DNA of 64,000 nucleotides, from the NCBI GenBank assembly GCA_001782035.1, contig MFNL01000001.1, positions 148,078 through 212,077 of the forward strand, written 5' to 3'. The position numbers were made by a program, and so were the translations under genes. A model generated the notes under the pieces. That model was given only the letters and a program-made list of their open reading frames with translations, was not told the origin of the DNA and did not search any database. Positions 15,554 through 31,528 of the stretch are shown here, in pieces; the stretch's first letter is position 1, and each line of letters starts with the position of its first letter. The stretch comes from Candidatus Levybacteria bacterium RIFCSPHIGHO2_01_FULL_37_17. Its GTDB lineage: Bacteria; Patescibacteriota; Microgenomatia; Levybacterales; UBA12049.

Positions 15554-15590
15554 TTGACAAGTTTTAGCAGTTGTGATATCTTACTGCTAA
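15554..15590 (+). promoter_or_regulatory. hrcA-grpE-dnaK-dnaJ promoter (TTGACA) overlapped by a CIRCE operator TTAGCAGTT-N9-TACTGCTAA
   Basis: A 27-nt inverted repeat at 15564..15590 matches the CIRCE consensus at 8/9 plus 8/9 positions. TTGACA lies at 15554..15559. Confidence 0.8.
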
Positions 15591-15668: not shown

Positions 15669-16400
15669 ATGCACGATTTAACAGCAAGGCAGGTTGAAAT
15701 CCTAAAAAGCTTAATTGAGGAATACATAGAAACGGCGGAAGCCGTTGGTTCCGAAACATTAGAAAAAAAGCACAATTTAAGCGCGTCCCCAGCGACAATT
15801 AGAAATGAAATGGTGCGTTTGACAGAGTTAGGATATCTTAAAAAGCTACACATTTCTGCAGGAAGAGTTCCAACTTCTGAGGGAATGAAATTCTATGTAA
15901 AGCAACTGATGAAGGAAAAAGAACTTTCGGTTGCCGAGGAAGTTTCATTAAAAGAAAAAGTCTGGGACTTGCGAGAAAAGGAAAAAGAATTCTTAAGAGA
16001 ACTAACCAGAACCTTAGCAGAAAGAACTAAAGCTTTGGCTGTTACAACTACAAACGAAGGAGATTTATTTTGTGCGGGTTATGCAAATTTACTTGACTCG
16101 AGAGAGTTTGAAGACATAGATGTTACAAAAAATCTTCTTTCTGTTATAGATGAGCTCGATTATTTTCAAAATTTATTTAGCGAGCAGGAAGATGATGATG
16201 AAACACATATTTTACTGGGAGAAGATTTAGGCCCAAAATTAAATGGCCCTTACGGGTTTGTTTATACAAAATATACAACGCCCGCAAGGTTAACTGGGGA
16301 AGTTGGAATACTAGGACCGGCAAGATTAAATTATAATCTTGTAGTCCCAACTGTAAGATATTTCGGACAATTAATTGAAGAAATAGCTGAGGGATGGTAA
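15669..16400 (+). CDS. hrcA: Heat-inducible transcription repressor HrcA (short form, 243 aa)
   Basis: The N-terminal wHTH (LTARQVEILKSLIEEYIETAEAVGSETL…ATIRNEMVRLTELGYL) is present. The gene lies upstream of grpE-dnaK and has a cognate CIRCE. Confidence 0.9.
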   Translation: MHDLTARQVEILKSLIEEYIETAEAVGSETLEKKHNLSASPATIRNEMVRLTELGYLKKLHISAGRVPTSEGMKFYVKQLMKEKELSVAEEVSLKEKVWDLREKEKEFLRELTRTLAERTKALAVTTTNEGDLFCAGYANLLDSREFEDIDVTKNLLSVIDELDYFQNLFSEQEDDDETHILLGEDLGPKLNGPYGFVYTKYTTPARLTGEVGILGPARLNYNLVVPTVRYFGQLIEEIAEGW

Positions 16401-25213: not shown

Positions 25214-26176
25214 ATGGACAATTTGACGTTTCCAAAAATAAAAGAAGCTATAGAAAAATATAATAATATAGGGATTGCAATCGCCTCAAGTTCCTCCTTG
25301 GATTCAACGGCAGCAGCATTATCTTTACACCTTTCTCTTAAAAATTTGGGCAAAAACGTAACAATTGCCTCTCCTTCCACGCCCCTGGTTGAAGTTTCCT
25401 CTCTGGTAGGGATTGATGAAGTTTCAAACGGTTTTGGCGGCGCAGGCGGAGATTTAATTGTTTCTTTTCCGTACAAAGAAGGAGAGATAGAAAAAGTTTC
25501 TTATACAAGAGATGAAAACTATTTAAATATCGTAGTTAAAGCAGGAGAGTTAGGCCTTAATTTCAACGAAAAAGACATAAAATTCACAAGAGGAGGAATC
25601 GCACCGCAGCTTTTATTTGTAATTGGTGCTCCCAGAATTTCTGATCTAGGTTCGTTATTTGACGCAGCTGCGCTTAAGGATACGGTTGTTGTAAATATAG
25701 ACAATAGCGCCCAAAACCAAGGATTTGGAGACATTGTTATGGTTTCTAACAGATTATCTTCTATTTCGGAGGCTGTTGCCAATATGCTTTTAGCCCTGAA
25801 TTTAAAAATTGACTTGGATATAGCCCAAAACTTAATGTCAGGAATTTCTGCGGCAACCGATAATTTTCAGAGCGAAAATACCAGCGCTTTAGCTTTCGAA
25901 GTTGCCGGAATTTTAATGAGGCAGGGTGCTACAAGACAGCTGCAGACAGTTGTGCGAAAAGTTTCGGAAGGCGATTTTATAAAACAACAGGAAAGAGTAA
26001 TTAGAACAGAACAGCATGCTCAAGCTTCTTCAGCAGAATCTATAAGAGAAGAGCTTGTGCAACAACCAACTCAAGCTCCGGTTCTTGAAAAAGTAGAGAA
26101 AAAAGAACAGGTAGTTGAAAATCCACCCGATGATTGGCTAGAGCCAAAAATCTACAAAGGCTCCACAAACTTCTAG
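25214..26176 (+). CDS. DHH-family (NrnA-like) protein with degenerate catalytic motifs
   Basis: It occupies the infB-downstream position where rbfA/nrnA usually sit. It is colinear with NrnA, but the DxD motif is SSS (IAIASSSSLDS) and DHH is DNS (VVNIDNSAQN). Confidence 0.45.
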   Translation: MDNLTFPKIKEAIEKYNNIGIAIASSSSLDSTAAALSLHLSLKNLGKNVTIASPSTPLVEVSSLVGIDEVSNGFGGAGGDLIVSFPYKEGEIEKVSYTRDENYLNIVVKAGELGLNFNEKDIKFTRGGIAPQLLFVIGAPRISDLGSLFDAAALKDTVVVNIDNSAQNQGFGDIVMVSNRLSSISEAVANMLLALNLKIDLDIAQNLMSGISAATDNFQSENTSALAFEVAGILMRQGATRQLQTVVRKVSEGDFIKQQERVIRTEQHAQASSAESIREELVQQPTQAPVLEKVEKKEQVVENPPDDWLEPKIYKGSTNF

Positions 26177-26239
26177 ACCATTGTAATTGGAAACAAGAGC
26201 TGATATAATACGTTTTGTTAATAAGGAAAGAAATTTAAG

Positions 26240-26509
26240 ATGCCACTTAGTTCTTCTCAGAAGAAAGACATAATTAAAGAATTCCAAACGGTTAAAGGCG
26301 ATACAGGAAGCCCTGAAGTACAGGTTGCGCTTTTAACATACAGAGTTGAAAAATTAACAGAACATCTAAAAGCTCATGCGCACGATAATCACAGCAGACG
26401 CGGTCTTCTTTCGATGATTGCAAAAAGAAGAAGGCTTATCAATTTTTTGGAAAAAGTTGATAAAGCACGTGCCTCGGAAATCGCAAAAAAGGTGGGACTG
26501 AAAAAATAA
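26240..26509 (+). CDS. rpsO: 30S ribosomal protein S15
   Basis: It is an 89-aa protein with the S15 family pattern (GDTGSPEVQVALLTYRVEKLTEHLKAHAHDNHSRRGLL) and is followed by pnp. Confidence 0.9.
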   Translation: MPLSSSQKKDIIKEFQTVKGDTGSPEVQVALLTYRVEKLTEHLKAHAHDNHSRRGLLSMIAKRRRLINFLEKVDKARASEIAKKVGLKK

Positions 26510-26519
26510 TTAAAATTTA

Positions 26520-28790
26520 ATGAAAAAAACCTCGAAGGAAATAGATTTAGCAGGTAAGAAGCTAATACTTGAAATTGGAGAATTTGCCGAACAGGCAACT
26601 TCTTCTATTTTGGCGCGGCTTGGAGAAACCGTAGTTTTAGTTACTGTTGTCGAAGGCGGAAAGACGGATTTGGATTATTTTCCTCTTAGTGTCGATTATG
26701 TTGAAAGGCTTTATGCAGGAGGAAGAATAAAGGGGAGCCGCTGGGTTAAACGAGAAGGAAGACCAAGTGATGAAGCAATACTTGCGGGAAGATTGATAGA
26801 TCGTTCCATTAGACCTCTTTTTCCAAAAAGCTTCAAAAATGAGGTTCAAATAATTGTAACCGTTATGTCAGTAGATGGTGAAAACGAAGCAGACGTTCTT
26901 GCATTAAATGCTGTATCTGCAGCATTGGCAATCTCGAGAATTCCCTGGAACGGACCAATAGGCGCAATAAGAGTGGGTTATATAAAGGAAAATGGAAATT
27001 CTGCAGAAATTTTAGAAAATCCCACAACTAGTGAAATAGACTTGTCGGAACTGGATATGGTCGTTTCGCAAACAAAAGATAAAACCGTAATGCTAGAAGC
27101 AGGGGCAAAACAGGTTTCCGAGGATGTTTTTGTCGAAGCAATTGGAAGGGCGCAAAAAGTAAATTCCGGAATAGTCGCCTCAATCGAGGAGCTTGTAAAG
27201 GAAGTTGGAACAAAAAAATTAGAAATAAGCGAAGACGCCTCATCTCATGAAGCAGTCGCGTTAATAGATAAATCCTACAAAGAAGATATTATTGCACTTA
27301 TTAAGTCTAAAGCAGATAAAGAATCAGGAGGAAACGAAATGGGAGAGTTGGTTGATAAAATTTATGACGATGAAAAAATGAAAAACAAAGATTCAGACAT
27401 CGATAAAAAAACAATTGTAAAAGCAATAGAGCATGTAATGTTTAAACAAATTAGAATTGATGTTTTGGAAAAAAACAAAAGAGTAGATGGAAGAAAAATG
27501 GATGAAATTCGCCCAATTGCTGCTAGAGTTGGAATCTTGCCCAGAACTCATGGAAGCGCACTTTTTCAAAGAGGCTTAACACAAGCTCTCTCCGTTATAA
27601 CTCTTGGTTCTCCAAGAATGGAGCAGTTAATCGAGTCAGCAGAAGGTGAAGAATCAAAAAGCTATATTCACCACTATAGTGGGCTTCCATATTCTTTCGG
27701 ACAAACCGGAAGAGTTGGTACACCGTCCAGACGCGAAATTGGACACGGAGCTTTGGCAGAGAGAGCCCTTGAAGCTGTTATTCCAAAACAGGAAACATTT
27801 CCATACACAATAAGAGTAGTTTCGGAAGTTTTATCACAGAATGGATCAAGTTCTATGGCTTCAACATGCGGGTCAACTCTTGCGTTAATGGATGCAGGCG
27901 TACCAATTTTAAAACCGGTAGCAGGAATTTCTATAGGGATGATGTCGGATGAGAAAAAATATCAACTTTTAACGGATATTATCGGAATTGAAGATTTTTC
28001 GGGAGATATGGATTTTAAAGTGGCCGGAACCGAGAATGGTGTAACAGCAATACAGGTAGACGTAAAAATTCCAGGACTTACAATAGAACAAGTTAAAGAT
28101 ATTTTTGCTGCTTCCAAAAAAGCAAGACTTTTTATATTGGATAAAATGCAATCCGTTATTCCTTCTTCAAGAAAAGAACTTTCGGAATATGCTCCTAAGA
28201 TAGAAGTAGTTCATATACCAGTGGACAAAATTGGCGAAGTAATTGGACCAGGTGGTAAGGTTATAAAAAACATTATTGCAACAACAGGCGCAACTGTTGA
28301 TGTTGAAGATGATGGATCTGTGACAATTTCAGGAACCAATGAGGAAGCAGTTCAAAGGGCAACAGATTGGGTTAAAAGTTTAACTAGGGACGTTGGAGTC
28401 GGAGAAGAATTTGAAGGAGAAGTAAAAAGAATTCTGCCTTTTGGAGCATTTGTTGAAATTTTACCCGGAAAAGAAGGAATGGTACATGTTTCAAAAATGT
28501 CAACAGAATTTGTAAATAATCCTTCCGACGTTGTTGAAATTGGACAAAAAGTAAAAGTAAGAGTTGCTGAGATAGACGAACAAGGAAGAATTAACCTATC
28601 TATGTTATTTGGAGCTGATGCCGAGAAAGAAAGAGAGCCTCGGGAAAGGCAAGAAAGAAGTTTTGCGGGAAGTGCTAGAGATGATAGAGGGCCAAGGCGC
28701 GAGCATCCTTTATCTATGCAGTTTAAAAGGGAAAGGCAAAAAACCTGGCAACAAAATAAACGCTTCGGTCCTAAAAAACCAAGATACTAA
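26520..28790 (+). CDS. pnp: Polyribonucleotide nucleotidyltransferase (PNPase) with an Arg-rich C-terminal extension
   Basis: Two RNase PH domains, a KH domain (GPGGKVIKNI) and an S1 domain are present, plus a basic tail of about 60 aa. Confidence 0.95.
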   Translation: MKKTSKEIDLAGKKLILEIGEFAEQATSSILARLGETVVLVTVVEGGKTDLDYFPLSVDYVERLYAGGRIKGSRWVKREGRPSDEAILAGRLIDRSIRPLFPKSFKNEVQIIVTVMSVDGENEADVLALNAVSAALAISRIPWNGPIGAIRVGYIKENGNSAEILENPTTSEIDLSELDMVVSQTKDKTVMLEAGAKQVSEDVFVEAIGRAQKVNSGIVASIEELVKEVGTKKLEISEDASSHEAVALIDKSYKEDIIALIKSKADKESGGNEMGELVDKIYDDEKMKNKDSDIDKKTIVKAIEHVMFKQIRIDVLEKNKRVDGRKMDEIRPIAARVGILPRTHGSALFQRGLTQALSVITLGSPRMEQLIESAEGEESKSYIHHYSGLPYSFGQTGRVGTPSRREIGHGALAERALEAVIPKQETFPYTIRVVSEVLSQNGSSSMASTCGSTLALMDAGVPILKPVAGISIGMMSDEKKYQLLTDIIGIEDFSGDMDFKVAGTENGVTAIQVDVKIPGLTIEQVKDIFAASKKARLFILDKMQSVIPSSRKELSEYAPKIEVVHIPVDKIGEVIGPGGKVIKNIIATTGATVDVEDDGSVTISGTNEEAVQRATDWVKSLTRDVGVGEEFEGEVKRILPFGAFVEILPGKEGMVHVSKMSTEFVNNPSDVVEIGQKVKVRVAEIDEQGRINLSMLFGADAEKEREPRERQERSFAGSARDDRGPRREHPLSMQFKRERQKTWQQNKRFGPKKPRY

Positions 28791-28815: not shown

Positions 28816-29871
28816 ATGGATTCTGCCCAAACCCTAGATTTAGAATTAAATAAATTATCGGAAAAAGTAAAAAAAGCTTCTTTACCAGCTGATTTATTGG
28901 AAAAAGTAAATTCAATGTTGTCTCTTCTTTCAATAAGTTTAAAAACAGGTACAGGTAGTTTTATAAACTATCAGGTTACAGAAAATTATTTAAACTGGCT
29001 TTGTTCACTACCTTTCAATATAGAAACGCAAGAGAATTTAGATATCAACAAAGCTAAAGAAATTCTTGATAAAAACCATTATGGACTGACTTCTATAAAA
29101 GACACAATTCTTGAATATTTATCAACACTCATTTTAAACAAGCAAAACAATGTATCTGTGAACGCCCCAATTCTTTGCCTAGTTGGTCTAGTTGGTACAG
29201 GTAAAACAACTCTTGCTTATTCTATTGCAGAGGCCCTGGGTAGAAAATTTGAAAGAATTCCTTTTGGAGGACTTTCCGATTCCTTATCTTTAAGAGGCCA
29301 GTCTCGTGCATTTTCAGACGCAGAACCTGGACTTTTTATAAAAAAAATCGTACACGCCCAAAGCAAAAATTGCGTAATACTTTTGGATGAATTGGATAGA
29401 ATTGCAGAACACGCAAGAGCTGATGTTATGGGAGTTCTAATAGAAGCATTGGATAATGAACAAAATAAATCATTTGTAGATCACTATATTGATTATCCTT
29501 TTGACTTATCACATATTTTATTTATTGCGACAGCAAATAATACGTCAACCTTATCAACAGCGGTTTTGGATAGACTGGAAATAATTCAAATGCCTTCATA
29601 TAACGATGAGGAGAAGAAAACTATCGGAGAATTGTATTTATTCCCTAAAATAGTAAAAAATTCAGGTCTAGTTGAAAACCAGGTTATAATAGATGAGGCT
29701 TTATGGTCTACAATTATAAGACCTTTAGGCTACGATAGTGGCATTAGAAGTTTGGAAAGGACGCTGGAAAATTTAGCTAGAGGGGTTGCAAGAGAAATAG
29801 TTGAGGGAAAATTGCAAAAAAATGCAAGAATTAAAATAGACGAAAATAATATAAACAAATATTTAGATTAG
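28816..29871 (+). CDS. Lon-like AAA+ ATPase module without the N-terminal LAN domain or the C-terminal S16 protease domain
   Basis: The protein is colinear with the Lon central region. It has a helical segment (DKNHYGLTSIKDTILEYL), Walker A GLVGTGKTT, Walker B ILLDELD, and the Lon lid (LDRLEIIQMPSY…GIRSLER). It ends where the protease domain would begin. Confidence 0.8.
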   Translation: MDSAQTLDLELNKLSEKVKKASLPADLLEKVNSMLSLLSISLKTGTGSFINYQVTENYLNWLCSLPFNIETQENLDINKAKEILDKNHYGLTSIKDTILEYLSTLILNKQNNVSVNAPILCLVGLVGTGKTTLAYSIAEALGRKFERIPFGGLSDSLSLRGQSRAFSDAEPGLFIKKIVHAQSKNCVILLDELDRIAEHARADVMGVLIEALDNEQNKSFVDHYIDYPFDLSHILFIATANNTSTLSTAVLDRLEIIQMPSYNDEEKKTIGELYLFPKIVKNSGLVENQVIIDEALWSTIIRPLGYDSGIRSLERTLENLARGVAREIVEGKLQKNARIKIDENNINKYLD

Positions 29872-29872
29872 T

Positions 29873-31528
29873 ATGGAAGAAAAAATATCAATCATTCCTC
29901 TTGGAGGAGTATCAGATGTAACTCGTAATATGTATATTTACGAATACAAAAACGAGATTCTTTTGGTGGACTGCGGGATTGGTTTTGCAAACGAAACAAT
30001 GGTAGGAGTCGATTTGTTGCTTCCCGACATTAATTACCTTAAAGAAAGCGGCAAAAAAATTGTCGGAATGGCTATAACTCATGGACACGAAGACCACATG
30101 GGAGCACTCCCTTATATTTTGCCAGATTTACCTAATTTTCCCATATATGCATCTTCTTTAACTGCAGACTTTGCAAACGAAAAACTTGTCGAATTTGGAC
30201 AGCAAAAAAGAGTACAGAAAGTAGATTTTGACGGAGGAGAAGTAAAAATTGGCAGTTTTACAATCTCATTTATAAGGGTTACCCACAGTATTCCAGATAC
30301 GTCTCATATCTTTATAAAAACCCCTATCGGAAATTTTTACCATGGAAGTGACTTTAAATTTGATTTAACTCCATATGACAATAAGAAAACAGACTTTCAA
30401 AAAATAGTAAAGAGCGCAAATCAGGGTGTTTTATGCCTTTTATCAGATGCGCTTCGCGCAGAAGAGCCGGGAAAAGCGCCTTCTGAGTCTAGCCTTACGT
30501 ACGCTTTTGAGGAGGAAATTGATAAAACACAAGGAAAATTTATCGTAACAACATTTTCTTCAAACATATCAAGGTTAAATCAGGTAATAAATGTGGCAAA
30601 AAAATTTAACAAAAGAGTTTGTTTTGTAGGCAGGTCATTAATTAAGGCAAAAGATATGGCAATAAGGCTTGGATACATGAATTTACCCAAAGGTATGGAG
30701 GTTGATGTTAGGGGACTAAAAAACGTAAAAGATAGCAATTTGGTTTTAATAGTTGCAGGAAGCCAGGGTCAGGAAAATTCTGCCTTAACGCGGATTGTAA
30801 GCGGAGAATTTAGAGAAATTAAACTAAACGCTTCTGACACAATAATTTTCAGTGCCGATCCAATTCCGGGAAATGAGATTTCCATTAATTCTTTGATTGA
30901 TGAAATTTCTAAAATTGGGGCAAGAGCTCTGTATCATGAAGTATCTGGGTCTTTCCATGTTTCAGGTCACGGCGCAGCAGACGATTTGATGTTACTTATG
31001 AATTTAACTCGGCCAAAGAACGTACTTCCAATTGGCGCAACGTATAGACAAATGGTAGCTTACAGACATTTGGCAAGGCAACAAGGTTTTGTAGATAAAA
31101 ATATAATCCTTATAGAAAACGGTCAGGAAGTAGTATTTACCAGAGAAAGTTCGTTTTTGGGCAAAAGGCTAAATCTAAGAACTGTTTTTGTAGATCAAAT
31201 ATCAGGAGAAGAGGTAGAAAGCTTTGTGGTAATGGACAGGCAAAAAATAGCAAAAGAAGGCGTGGTTGTTGTTATTGCCGAAGTGGATTCACAAACGGGG
31301 CAAATTGTTGAAAATCCAAATATTATCGCAAGAGGTTATGCATCAGTTGACGCGCAAACCTTATCTAAAGGCTTAACTAAAGATTTAAAGAACGCACTGT
31401 CTAGAAAGAAAGGTCCGGTTACAAACTGGATTTATATAAGAAGACAAATTGCTGATACATCGGAAAAGTTTATTTTCAAAACTTTCCGCAAACACCCCAT
31501 GGTTTTACCCATTGTTATTGAAGTCTAG
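29873..31528 (+). CDS. rnj: Ribonuclease J (metallo-beta-lactamase / beta-CASP RNase)
   Basis: The HGHEDHMGALPY motif (HxHxDH) and the beta-CASP and C-terminal domains are present at a typical length of 551 aa. Confidence 0.9.
   Translation: MEEKISIIPLGGVSDVTRNMYIYEYKNEILLVDCGIGFANETMVGVDLLLPDINYLKESGKKIVGMAITHGHEDHMGALPYILPDLPNFPIYASSLTADFANEKLVEFGQQKRVQKVDFDGGEVKIGSFTISFIRVTHSIPDTSHIFIKTPIGNFYHGSDFKFDLTPYDNKKTDFQKIVKSANQGVLCLLSDALRAEEPGKAPSESSLTYAFEEEIDKTQGKFIVTTFSSNISRLNQVINVAKKFNKRVCFVGRSLIKAKDMAIRLGYMNLPKGMEVDVRGLKNVKDSNLVLIVAGSQGQENSALTRIVSGEFREIKLNASDTIIFSADPIPGNEISINSLIDEISKIGARALYHEVSGSFHVSGHGAADDLMLLMNLTRPKNVLPIGATYRQMVAYRHLARQQGFVDKNIILIENGQEVVFTRESSFLGKRLNLRTVFVDQISGEEVESFVVMDRQKIAKEGVVVVIAEVDSQTGQIVENPNIIARGYASVDAQTLSKGLTKDLKNALSRKKGPVTNWIYIRRQIADTSEKFIFKTFRKHPMVLPIVIEV

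Follow-up and report, generated by a model that had tools for sequence, protein, structure and literature searches.

Lon is regarded as the archetypal single-chain fusion of an ATPase with a protease. In LonA from Meiothermus the residues Tyr397 and Trp431, located in pore loops 1 and 2, respectively, touch the translocating chain and are needed for degradation (PMC8503904). LonC has retained the protease together with a dead ATPase module, and a chaperone role has been proposed for it (PMC3391209, PMC13069640). Here we describe a gene for a Lon-type ATPase in Candidatus Levybacteria bacterium RIFCSPHIGHO2_01_FULL_37_17, found in a stretch of 64,000 nucleotides (contig MFNL01000001.1, positions 148,078 to 212,077 of the forward strand), which is called the window below and to which coordinates refer unless a locus is named. 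The protein consists of the central part of LonA, and its homologues show it to belong to a conserved, lineage-specific family of stand-alone, LonA-derived AAA+ proteins in the Patescibacteria (Candidate Phyla Radiation, CPR). The family shows a natural Lon ATPase, free of both the protease and the LAN domain, across much of the CPR.

Domain architecture of the Lon-type ATPase

28816..29871, + strand: gene of the Lon-type ATPase, 351 amino acids, with N-terminal helical bundle, AAA+ alpha/beta domain and lid
28816..29160, + strand: N-terminal helical region, residues 1-115 (TIGR00763 match from model position 255; predicted helices)
29656..29820, + strand: Lon-type lid domain, residues 281-335 (Pfam PF22667, Lon_lid, E = 2e-10)

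The open reading frame starts with ATG at 28816 and ends with TAG at 29869-29871. Besides the lid, Pfam recognizes an AAA domain (residues 120-258, E = 5.9e-20), and residues 11-344 align with positions 255-580 of the 795 positions of NCBIfam model TIGR00763 (endopeptidase La). The score of 316.2 bits is under the family cut-off of 608 bits, and with NF008053 (score 235, cut-off 891) the cut-off is also not reached. Because the match to TIGR00763 spans just these positions, the LAN and the S16 domain are both absent: the alignment begins at position 255 and Pfam LON_substr_bdg has no match in the protein, nor has Lon_C, which comprises the Ser-Lys dyad, the stop codon following TIGR00763 position 580. 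Solved structures of LonA and LONP1 match the same span, for example that of the Bacillus subtilis enzyme (3m6a; residues 9-337 of a 543-residue chain, E = 2.7e-69).

In LonA, the N-terminal region corresponds to the last part of the long helix together with the three-helix bundle before the AAA+ core. In an AlphaFold model built from 61 family sequences (pLDDT 89.9, pTM 0.84) this part is folded into helices 3-20, 25-44, 49-64, 77-87 and 92-110, and Foldseek aligned the model with the AAA+ modules of LonA and LONP1 with TMq values of 0.80-0.88. The Lon-type AAA+ module, the Lon lid and the preceding three-helix bundle are all present as judged by Pfam, the 3m6a alignment and Foldseek. A first-pass annotation, made by reading the letters of the window, had assigned to the protein the central helical and AAA+ region of Lon only, without LAN and S16; this was borne out by the Pfam matches, the TIGR00763 span and the 3m6a alignment. 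The architecture is far past chance, since it recurs in hundreds of database proteins.

Family extent

The best 120 database homologues, from Candidatus Levybacteria and other Patescibacteria, are all 341-360 amino acids long, have the same domain content and show 64-100% identity, the window protein being a 100% match to a protein of a Levybacteria metagenome-assembled genome (MAG). When the search was seeded with a member of 41% identity (P0160), none of the best 120 matches contained Lon_C; most were 342-416 amino acids long, a few reached up to 507 via low-complexity extensions, and Dojkabacteria as well as a 'Nomurabacteria' entry were among them. A scan of species-representative genomes yielded 80 loci, every one with a complete open reading frame of 318-433 amino acids, from Levy-, Gottesman-, Roizman-, Shapiro-, Woese-, Davies-, Ames- and Curtissbacteria and from unnamed Patescibacteria. 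The extra length of the longer members is of low complexity, rich in Q, P, S and N and mostly N-terminal, and brings no added domains.

A neighbour-joining tree was calculated from an alignment of the three-helix bundle and the AAA+ core of 114 non-redundant sequences, with the odd sequences P0205 and P0221 left out. The 38 CPR short-form representatives grouped as a single clade, separate from full-length LonA, in 60 of 60 bootstraps. Inside this clade the median identity is 53%; to LonA it is 41%, with 49% as the highest value. A few other 'short' matches fell inside the LonA clade; their pore loops are canonical and their ends garbled, which suggests truncated gene calls.

The truncated architecture could also be that of a decaying lon remnant or of a full-length lon interrupted by a sequencing or assembly frameshift, both of which the first-pass annotation had considered, and some members are indeed named 'ATP-dependent Lon protease' by the Joint Genome Institute (JGI). 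The stop position and the length, however, are shared by 88 independent loci, which come from many assemblies and all have complete open reading frames of similar length; the catalytic residues of the ATPase are invariant in 350 sequences, with identities of 64-88% among close homologues and down to about 41% in the deepest branches; and the short forms are a distinct clade. In the related loci the DNA 3' of the gene contains RNase J, uracil-DNA glycosylase (UDG) or other genes and never S16. Remnant and frameshift are thereby refuted, and the probability that we still give them is practically nil.

Other family members are deposited as 'hypothetical protein' or 'AAA family ATPase', and full-text literature searches found no description of a short-form Lon ATPase family. 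The JGI label is misleading for many of the members, and because of it metabolic and proteostasis reconstructions may wrongly credit CPR genomes with a Lon protease. The titles of many records that carry the CPR-type gene cluster (L007, L013, L019-L024, L027, L069 and others) read 'uncultured Gammaproteobacteria', 'Candidatus Bathyarchaeia archaeon' or 'Candidatus Methanoperedens sp.'. The genomes are probably Patescibacteria MAGs and the labels placeholders or errors.

ATP site and pore loops

Residue frequencies were determined in 350 short-form sequences, to which the conservation given in the following lines refers, and in 90 Lon homologues that extend past the AAA+ module and were taken as full-length LonA.

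29185..29208, + strand: Walker A, GLVGTGKT, residues 124-131; G124, G127, G129, K130 and T131 invariant
29293..29331, + strand: pore loop 1, RGQSRAFSDAEPG, residues 160-172, from the 3m6a alignment and column frequencies; RGHRRTY[VI]GA[ML]PG in LonA
29374..29391, + strand: Walker B, VILLDE, residues 187-192; D191 and E192 100% conserved
29401..29424, + strand: pore loop 2 region, IAEHARAD, residues 196-203; Ala at the position of the LonA aromatic residue
29536..29538, + strand: sensor-1 Asn241, 100% conserved
29572..29574, + strand: arginine finger Arg253, 100% conserved
29746..29748, + strand: sensor-2 Arg311, within the lid, 100% conserved

The AAA+ catalytic set is complete in the window protein: Walker A (GxxGxGKT) and Walker B (hhhhDE), both of which the first-pass annotation had recognized, the sensor-1 Asn, the trans arginine finger and the sensor-2 Arg. 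Such a set marks an active ATPase that functions in oligomeric form, and ATP hydrolysis and assembly are predicted from it. Since the finger Arg253 acts across the subunit interface, an oligomeric ring is implied, and from the invariance of Walker A and B, sensor 1, the trans arginine finger and sensor 2 together we infer a Lon-like ring with ATP hydrolysis.

Around this intact ATP site the substrate pore has been rebuilt at the sequence level, as the residue frequencies show. In pore loop 1 the LonA motif HRRTY[VI]GA[ML]PG, in which Tyr and Gly are found in 96% and 92% of the LonA set (n = 90), has become QSRxxxDAEPG in the short-form family. Among the 38 non-redundant representatives position 166 (Tyr in LonA) is aromatic in 10, position 168 (Gly in LonA) is Asp or Glu in 34 and position 170 (Met/Leu in LonA) is Glu in 37; the window protein has Phe-Ser-Asp where LonA has Tyr-(Val/Ile)-Gly. 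The corresponding position of pore loop 2, which is F or Y in 67% of the LonA set, is aromatic in none of the 38. With the Tyr-hydrophobic-Gly gripper replaced family-wide and the second aromatic residue absent throughout, the term unfoldase, used in the first-pass annotation, is unsupported as stated. The isoelectric point (pI) of the aligned core has a median of 5.6 in the short forms versus 6.6 in LonA and is 5.3 in the window protein.

Proposed function

We propose, with about even confidence, that the Lon-type ATPase is an intact, functional, ring-forming, non-proteolytic, Lon-derived protein remodeller. In this descendant of LonA the N-terminal LAN domain, which serves in substrate recognition, and the C-terminal S16 domain were permanently lost; what was kept is the three-helix bundle and, complete, the AAA+ module. 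It would assemble into a Lon-like ring, which is assumed to form also without the protease ring, and would hydrolyse ATP. In the sequences, the gripper of pore loop 1 has been converted to x-(Pro/Ser)-Asp with an invariant Glu behind it, and the aromatic residue of pore loop 2 is gone; a role as processive translocase appears improbable because the ATPase is intact and the gripper residues are replaced, so that polypeptides would not be moved processively into a protease chamber. More likely, client proteins would be remodelled, held or released at the expense of ATP and would not be degraded, and the acidic pore may favour basic segments. We liken this role to the chaperone-like activity that has been reported for protease-dead Lon.

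A link to proteostasis is supported by the presence of groES-groEL beside the gene in 11 loci and, in the window, by hrcA, dnaK, dnaJ and a clpB-like gene located 5' on the same strand. Also consistent with a remodeller is that the predicted model, when compared with 6n2i, has the Lon fold without added docking loops. Against it weighs that the subclade of the window protein itself has kept an aromatic residue, Phe166, in pore loop 1, which makes some threading possible for this protein, and that the 11 groESL-linked loci all belong to one subclade. Furthermore, in most genomes the ATPase gene is located between those of polynucleotide phosphorylase (PNPase; pnp) and RNase J (rnj), with pnp 5' in 58 of 80 and rnj 3' in 64 of 83 informative loci, and a functional link to RNA decay is therefore possible.

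The family offers a test case of what a Lon motor does when degradation is impossible, the ATP site being perfectly conserved and the pore redesigned. It is also a lineage-specific addition to what the CPR bacteria, with their reduced genomes, possess for proteostasis and RNA metabolism, a toolkit that is poorly understood.

Search for a separate protease

A simple split gene, with the protease domain encoded by an adjacent open reading frame, had been named in the first-pass annotation as another way to explain the short form. With the protease domain of E. coli Lon as the query, tblastn found no S16 in the 64 kb window, and neither the window nor the related loci (90 loci, 986 kb, flanks of about 6-10 kb) gave a match to the S16 and LAN domains of two full-length Lons. 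Without S16 or LAN in the window and in about 1 Mb around the homologues, the adjacent split gene is refuted. A peptidase was also not found as recurrent neighbour of the ATPase gene in the related loci, the recurrent neighbours being genes for UDG, a metallophosphoesterase, PfkB, GroES/EL, an RNaseH-like PF04308 protein and RtcB, and miscellaneous genes.

The S16 domain could still be the product of a separate, distant gene and assemble with the ATPase as ClpP does with ClpX. The open reading frame does end at the boundary between the AAA+ module and the protease in LonA, and the ATPase machinery that would drive such a complex is intact. We nevertheless consider a split Lon of this kind improbable. 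No S16-like sequence is present in the window or in the about 6-10 kb around 88 homologues, the pore-loop residues that drive the chain in LonA (cf. PMC8503904) are replaced family-wide, and the LAN domain has been lost too; in addition, when the predicted model is set against the AAA+ module of LonA, it shows no additional loops as possible docking elements.

Lon-like ATPases of defence systems, such as BrxL of BREX, were considered and rejected. PADLOC found no BrxL and gave weak generic AAA matches only (best DolB, 5.6e-09, 34 bits), none of them specific, and the neighbours are housekeeping genes.

Gene order and RNA decay

26181-26209, + strand: promoter-like site TTGTAA-17-TATAAT with TG (consensus match only)
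26240-26509, + strand: rpsO, 89 amino acids, the gene 3' of the promoter-like site
26520..28790, + strand: pnp, PNPase, 756 amino acids, with Arg-rich C-terminal tail, 25 nucleotides 5' of the ATPase gene (Pfam RNase_PH twice, KH, S1)
29869..29875, + strand: junction TAG-T-ATG, comprising the ATPase stop codon, one spacer base and the rnj start codon
29873..31528, + strand: rnj, RNase J, 551 amino acids (TIGR00649, 471.8 bits, above the cut-off of 400)

The rnj product has the metallo-beta-lactamase, beta-CASP and C-terminal domains of the RNase J family (Pfam RNase_J_b_CASP, 3.9e-39; RNase_J_C, 7.3e-20) in addition to its score above the family cut-off. Its ATG at 29873 does begin one nucleotide past the ATPase stop, as had been noted in the first pass. 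The lack of a Shine-Dalgarno motif before rnj is uninformative with respect to translational coupling because only 3 of 41 window genes (those of at least 150 amino acids with rpsO added) have a Shine-Dalgarno-like motif. Many window genes have a TATAAT, often as TCTGCTATAAT, 6-12 nucleotides 5' of the start codon, for example 5' of 22440, 32679 (- strand), 32810, 43243 (- strand), 43515, 55089 and 62806, which suggests that leaderless mRNAs or mRNAs with very short leaders are widespread in this genome.

On the + strand of the window the genes run in the order hrcA-dnaK-dnaJ-clpB-like-nusA-infB-ORF320-rpsO-pnp-ATPase-rnj, and from pnp to the end of rnj no terminator-like site was found on this strand. 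Because of this and of the promoter-like site before rpsO, the genes rpsO, pnp, ATPase and rnj are likely to be co-transcribed. ORF320 (25214-26176, 320 amino acids), between infB and rpsO, has no Pfam match, and its position is kept in most related loci. In L090 the gene beside infB has a DHH domain; that ORF320 is a divergent NrnA-like nanoRNase is a guess only. The PNPase tail behind S1 comprises residues 696-756 in the window (28605-28787; 61 residues, of which 18 are K or R and 10 D or E), and an Arg/Lys-rich tail is found across 59 related loci, with a median of 50 residues and a net charge of +7.

Gene order was surveyed in 88 distinct loci, the window included. On the 5' side of the ATPase gene, pnp is immediately adjacent in 50 loci and located farther away in 8; a divergent groES takes this position in 11 and pfkB in 7. 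On the 3' side, rnj is the next gene in 42 loci, with a gap of at most 10 nucleotides in about 14, mostly from Levybacteria and close relatives. In 21 loci udg, encoding a family-4/5-type UDG (PF03167), sometimes together with a metallophosphoesterase gene, lies between ATPase and rnj, and in 5 loci udg is found with no rnj in view. A convergent gene for an RNaseH-like protein (PF04308) follows the ATPase gene in 7 loci and is itself followed, where identified (L017), by rtcB. This RtcB RNA ligase gene (L017 4020-6896, - strand, 958 amino acids), which adjoins the PF04308 gene, contains an intein (Pfam RtcB and Intein_splicing).

The deep branches, which include Dojkabacteria, have udg between ATPase and rnj, the order in L088 and L089 being nusA-infB-x-rpsO-pnp-ATPase-udg-(...)-rnj-ftsK. 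In L087 the ATPase gene is 4.5 kb from pnp and rnj is absent; in L090 only an overlapping ATPase-udg pair has been kept. The ancestral order was probably rpsO-pnp-ATPase-udg-rnj-ftsK. Because of the udg in the deep branches, the one-base abutment of rnj would be the derived state in Levybacteria and relatives, and it probably arose by loss of the intervening udg from this site.

The position of the gene brings up the alternative that PNPase and/or RNase J form an RNA-degrading assembly in the CPR to which the Lon-type ATPase belongs as a dedicated subunit or regulator, and in which it would remodel ribonucleoproteins (RNPs) or control the nucleases. We regard this, the main rival of the remodeller, as unlikely, although it has points in its favour: the frequency of pnp immediately 5', of rnj as next gene or, in 21 more loci, after udg, the short gaps to rnj, and a pnp-ATPase-rnj stretch free of terminator-like sites. 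Speculatively, the Arg-rich PNPase tail could be engaged by the acidic pore. Position alone, however, is weak evidence because nusA-infB-rpsO-pnp and rnj-ftsK are old conserved arrays (gene order of Bacillus and Mycobacterium). Unrelated genes (udg, metallophosphoesterase) are often inserted between ATPase and rnj, one locus has the ATPase-udg pair only, and the 11 loci with groES-groEL, confirmed by Pfam, have neither pnp nor rnj nearby. The acidic core (pI about 5.6 against 6.6 in LonA) and the conserved Asp and Glu of the pore are unfavourable to RNA binding. E. coli Lon has a basic DNA-binding patch; the corresponding position is not basic in the short-form family, which is likewise unfavourable. 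A fusion to an RNA-related or otherwise partner-revealing domain was not found among the longer family members. The suggestion of the first-pass annotation that the ATPase acts with RNase J is unsupported as stated, given that rnj abuts the gene in 42 of the 88 loci and closely in about 14, with udg in between or groESL instead in many others. The adjacency of rnj is a local gene-order feature and no evidence of a dedicated RNase J partnership.

A bolder version, to which we give a low probability, is that the Lon-type ATPase is the ATP-driven subunit of a CPR-specific machine resembling an RNA degradosome. The acidic pore, with Asp168 and Glu170 from each subunit, would engage basic, Arg-rich segments such as the PNPase tail, or ribosomal proteins, and would thereby couple the remodelling of proteins or RNPs to RNA decay by PNPase and RNase J. 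In classical degradosomes there is a DEAD-box helicase, the place of which the ATPase would take.

Putative regulatory elements

window 15554-15590, just 5' of hrcA (15669-16400): CIRCE-variant inverted repeat TTAGCAGT-N11-ACTGCTAA, overlapped by the -35-like hexamer in TTGACAAGTTTTAGCAGTTGTGATATCTTACTGCTAA
L017 2473-2499, L020 2414-2440, L029 5201-5227, L043 5985-6011, L050 5936-5976, L051/L058/L070 5946-5972, L065 1569-1609, L071 5924-5964, L077 5970-5996: conserved element TTGTCAAG-N13 (or N27)-(G)TCTGCTAA

The CIRCE variant in the window precedes hrcA, which is followed on the same strand by dnaK, dnaJ and the clpB-like gene. A search for a canonical CIRCE/HrcA operator 5' of the ATPase gene was negative for the window and also for the intergenic regions between groES and the ATPase gene. 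In these intergenic regions the conserved element TTGTCAAG...TCTGCTAA is present at the 5' end of the ATPase gene in 11 of the 11 loci with divergent groES-groEL. The pattern has 12 matches in 1.05 Mb, 11 of them at the ATPase 5' end, and could be a promoter or operator; in three loci a GTG within the element is in frame with the ATPase open reading frame.

Comparison with known systems

The closest described system is LonA (MEROPS S16, TIGR00763; B. subtilis 3m6a, E. coli 6u5z, Meiothermus 7fd4), with which the Lon-type ATPase shares the three-helix bundle, the AAA+ alpha/beta domain and the Lon lid at about 40% identity and TM values of 0.80-0.88. Walker A and B, sensor 1, the arginine finger, sensor 2 and the EVLDPEQN...DHY segment have been kept. 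The Lon-type ATPase differs from LonA by having neither LAN nor the S16 Ser-Lys protease, by its rebuilt pore loops, by its Walker A (GL.G.GKT in the short-form family versus GPPGVGKT in LonA) and by forming a separate clade. It should not be called Lon protease because it lacks LAN, S16 and the pore-loop motif and stays below the family score cut-off.

An arrangement of another kind was observed in P0121 (1113 amino acids; annotated source Candidatus Dependentiae), P0123 (1075 amino acids) and about 28 other database proteins, in which two or three Lon-type AAA+ modules in tandem are followed by a single S16 domain.

The AAA+ construct of E. coli Lon (PDB 6n2i) has nearly the same boundaries (338 versus 351 residues; TMq 0.86, TMt 0.89). 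It is an engineered truncation of a protease and has canonical pore loops, whereas the CPR protein is a natural free-standing product with a rebuilt pore.

LonC from Meiothermus taiwanensis resembles the CPR protein in that one of the two Lon activities has been given up, a chaperone role being proposed for LonC. The two are mirror images of each other: in LonC the protease was kept and the ATPase is dead; in the CPR protein the ATPase is intact and there is no protease.

ClpB/Hsp104, when set against ClpA and ClpC, is an unfoldase-type AAA+ ring without a peptidase; the analogy is in the possible mode of working and not in family membership. ClpB has kept aromatic pore loops and threads its substrates, whereas in the CPR proteins, which are of another architecture and another clade, the aromatic residue of the gripper is not conserved.

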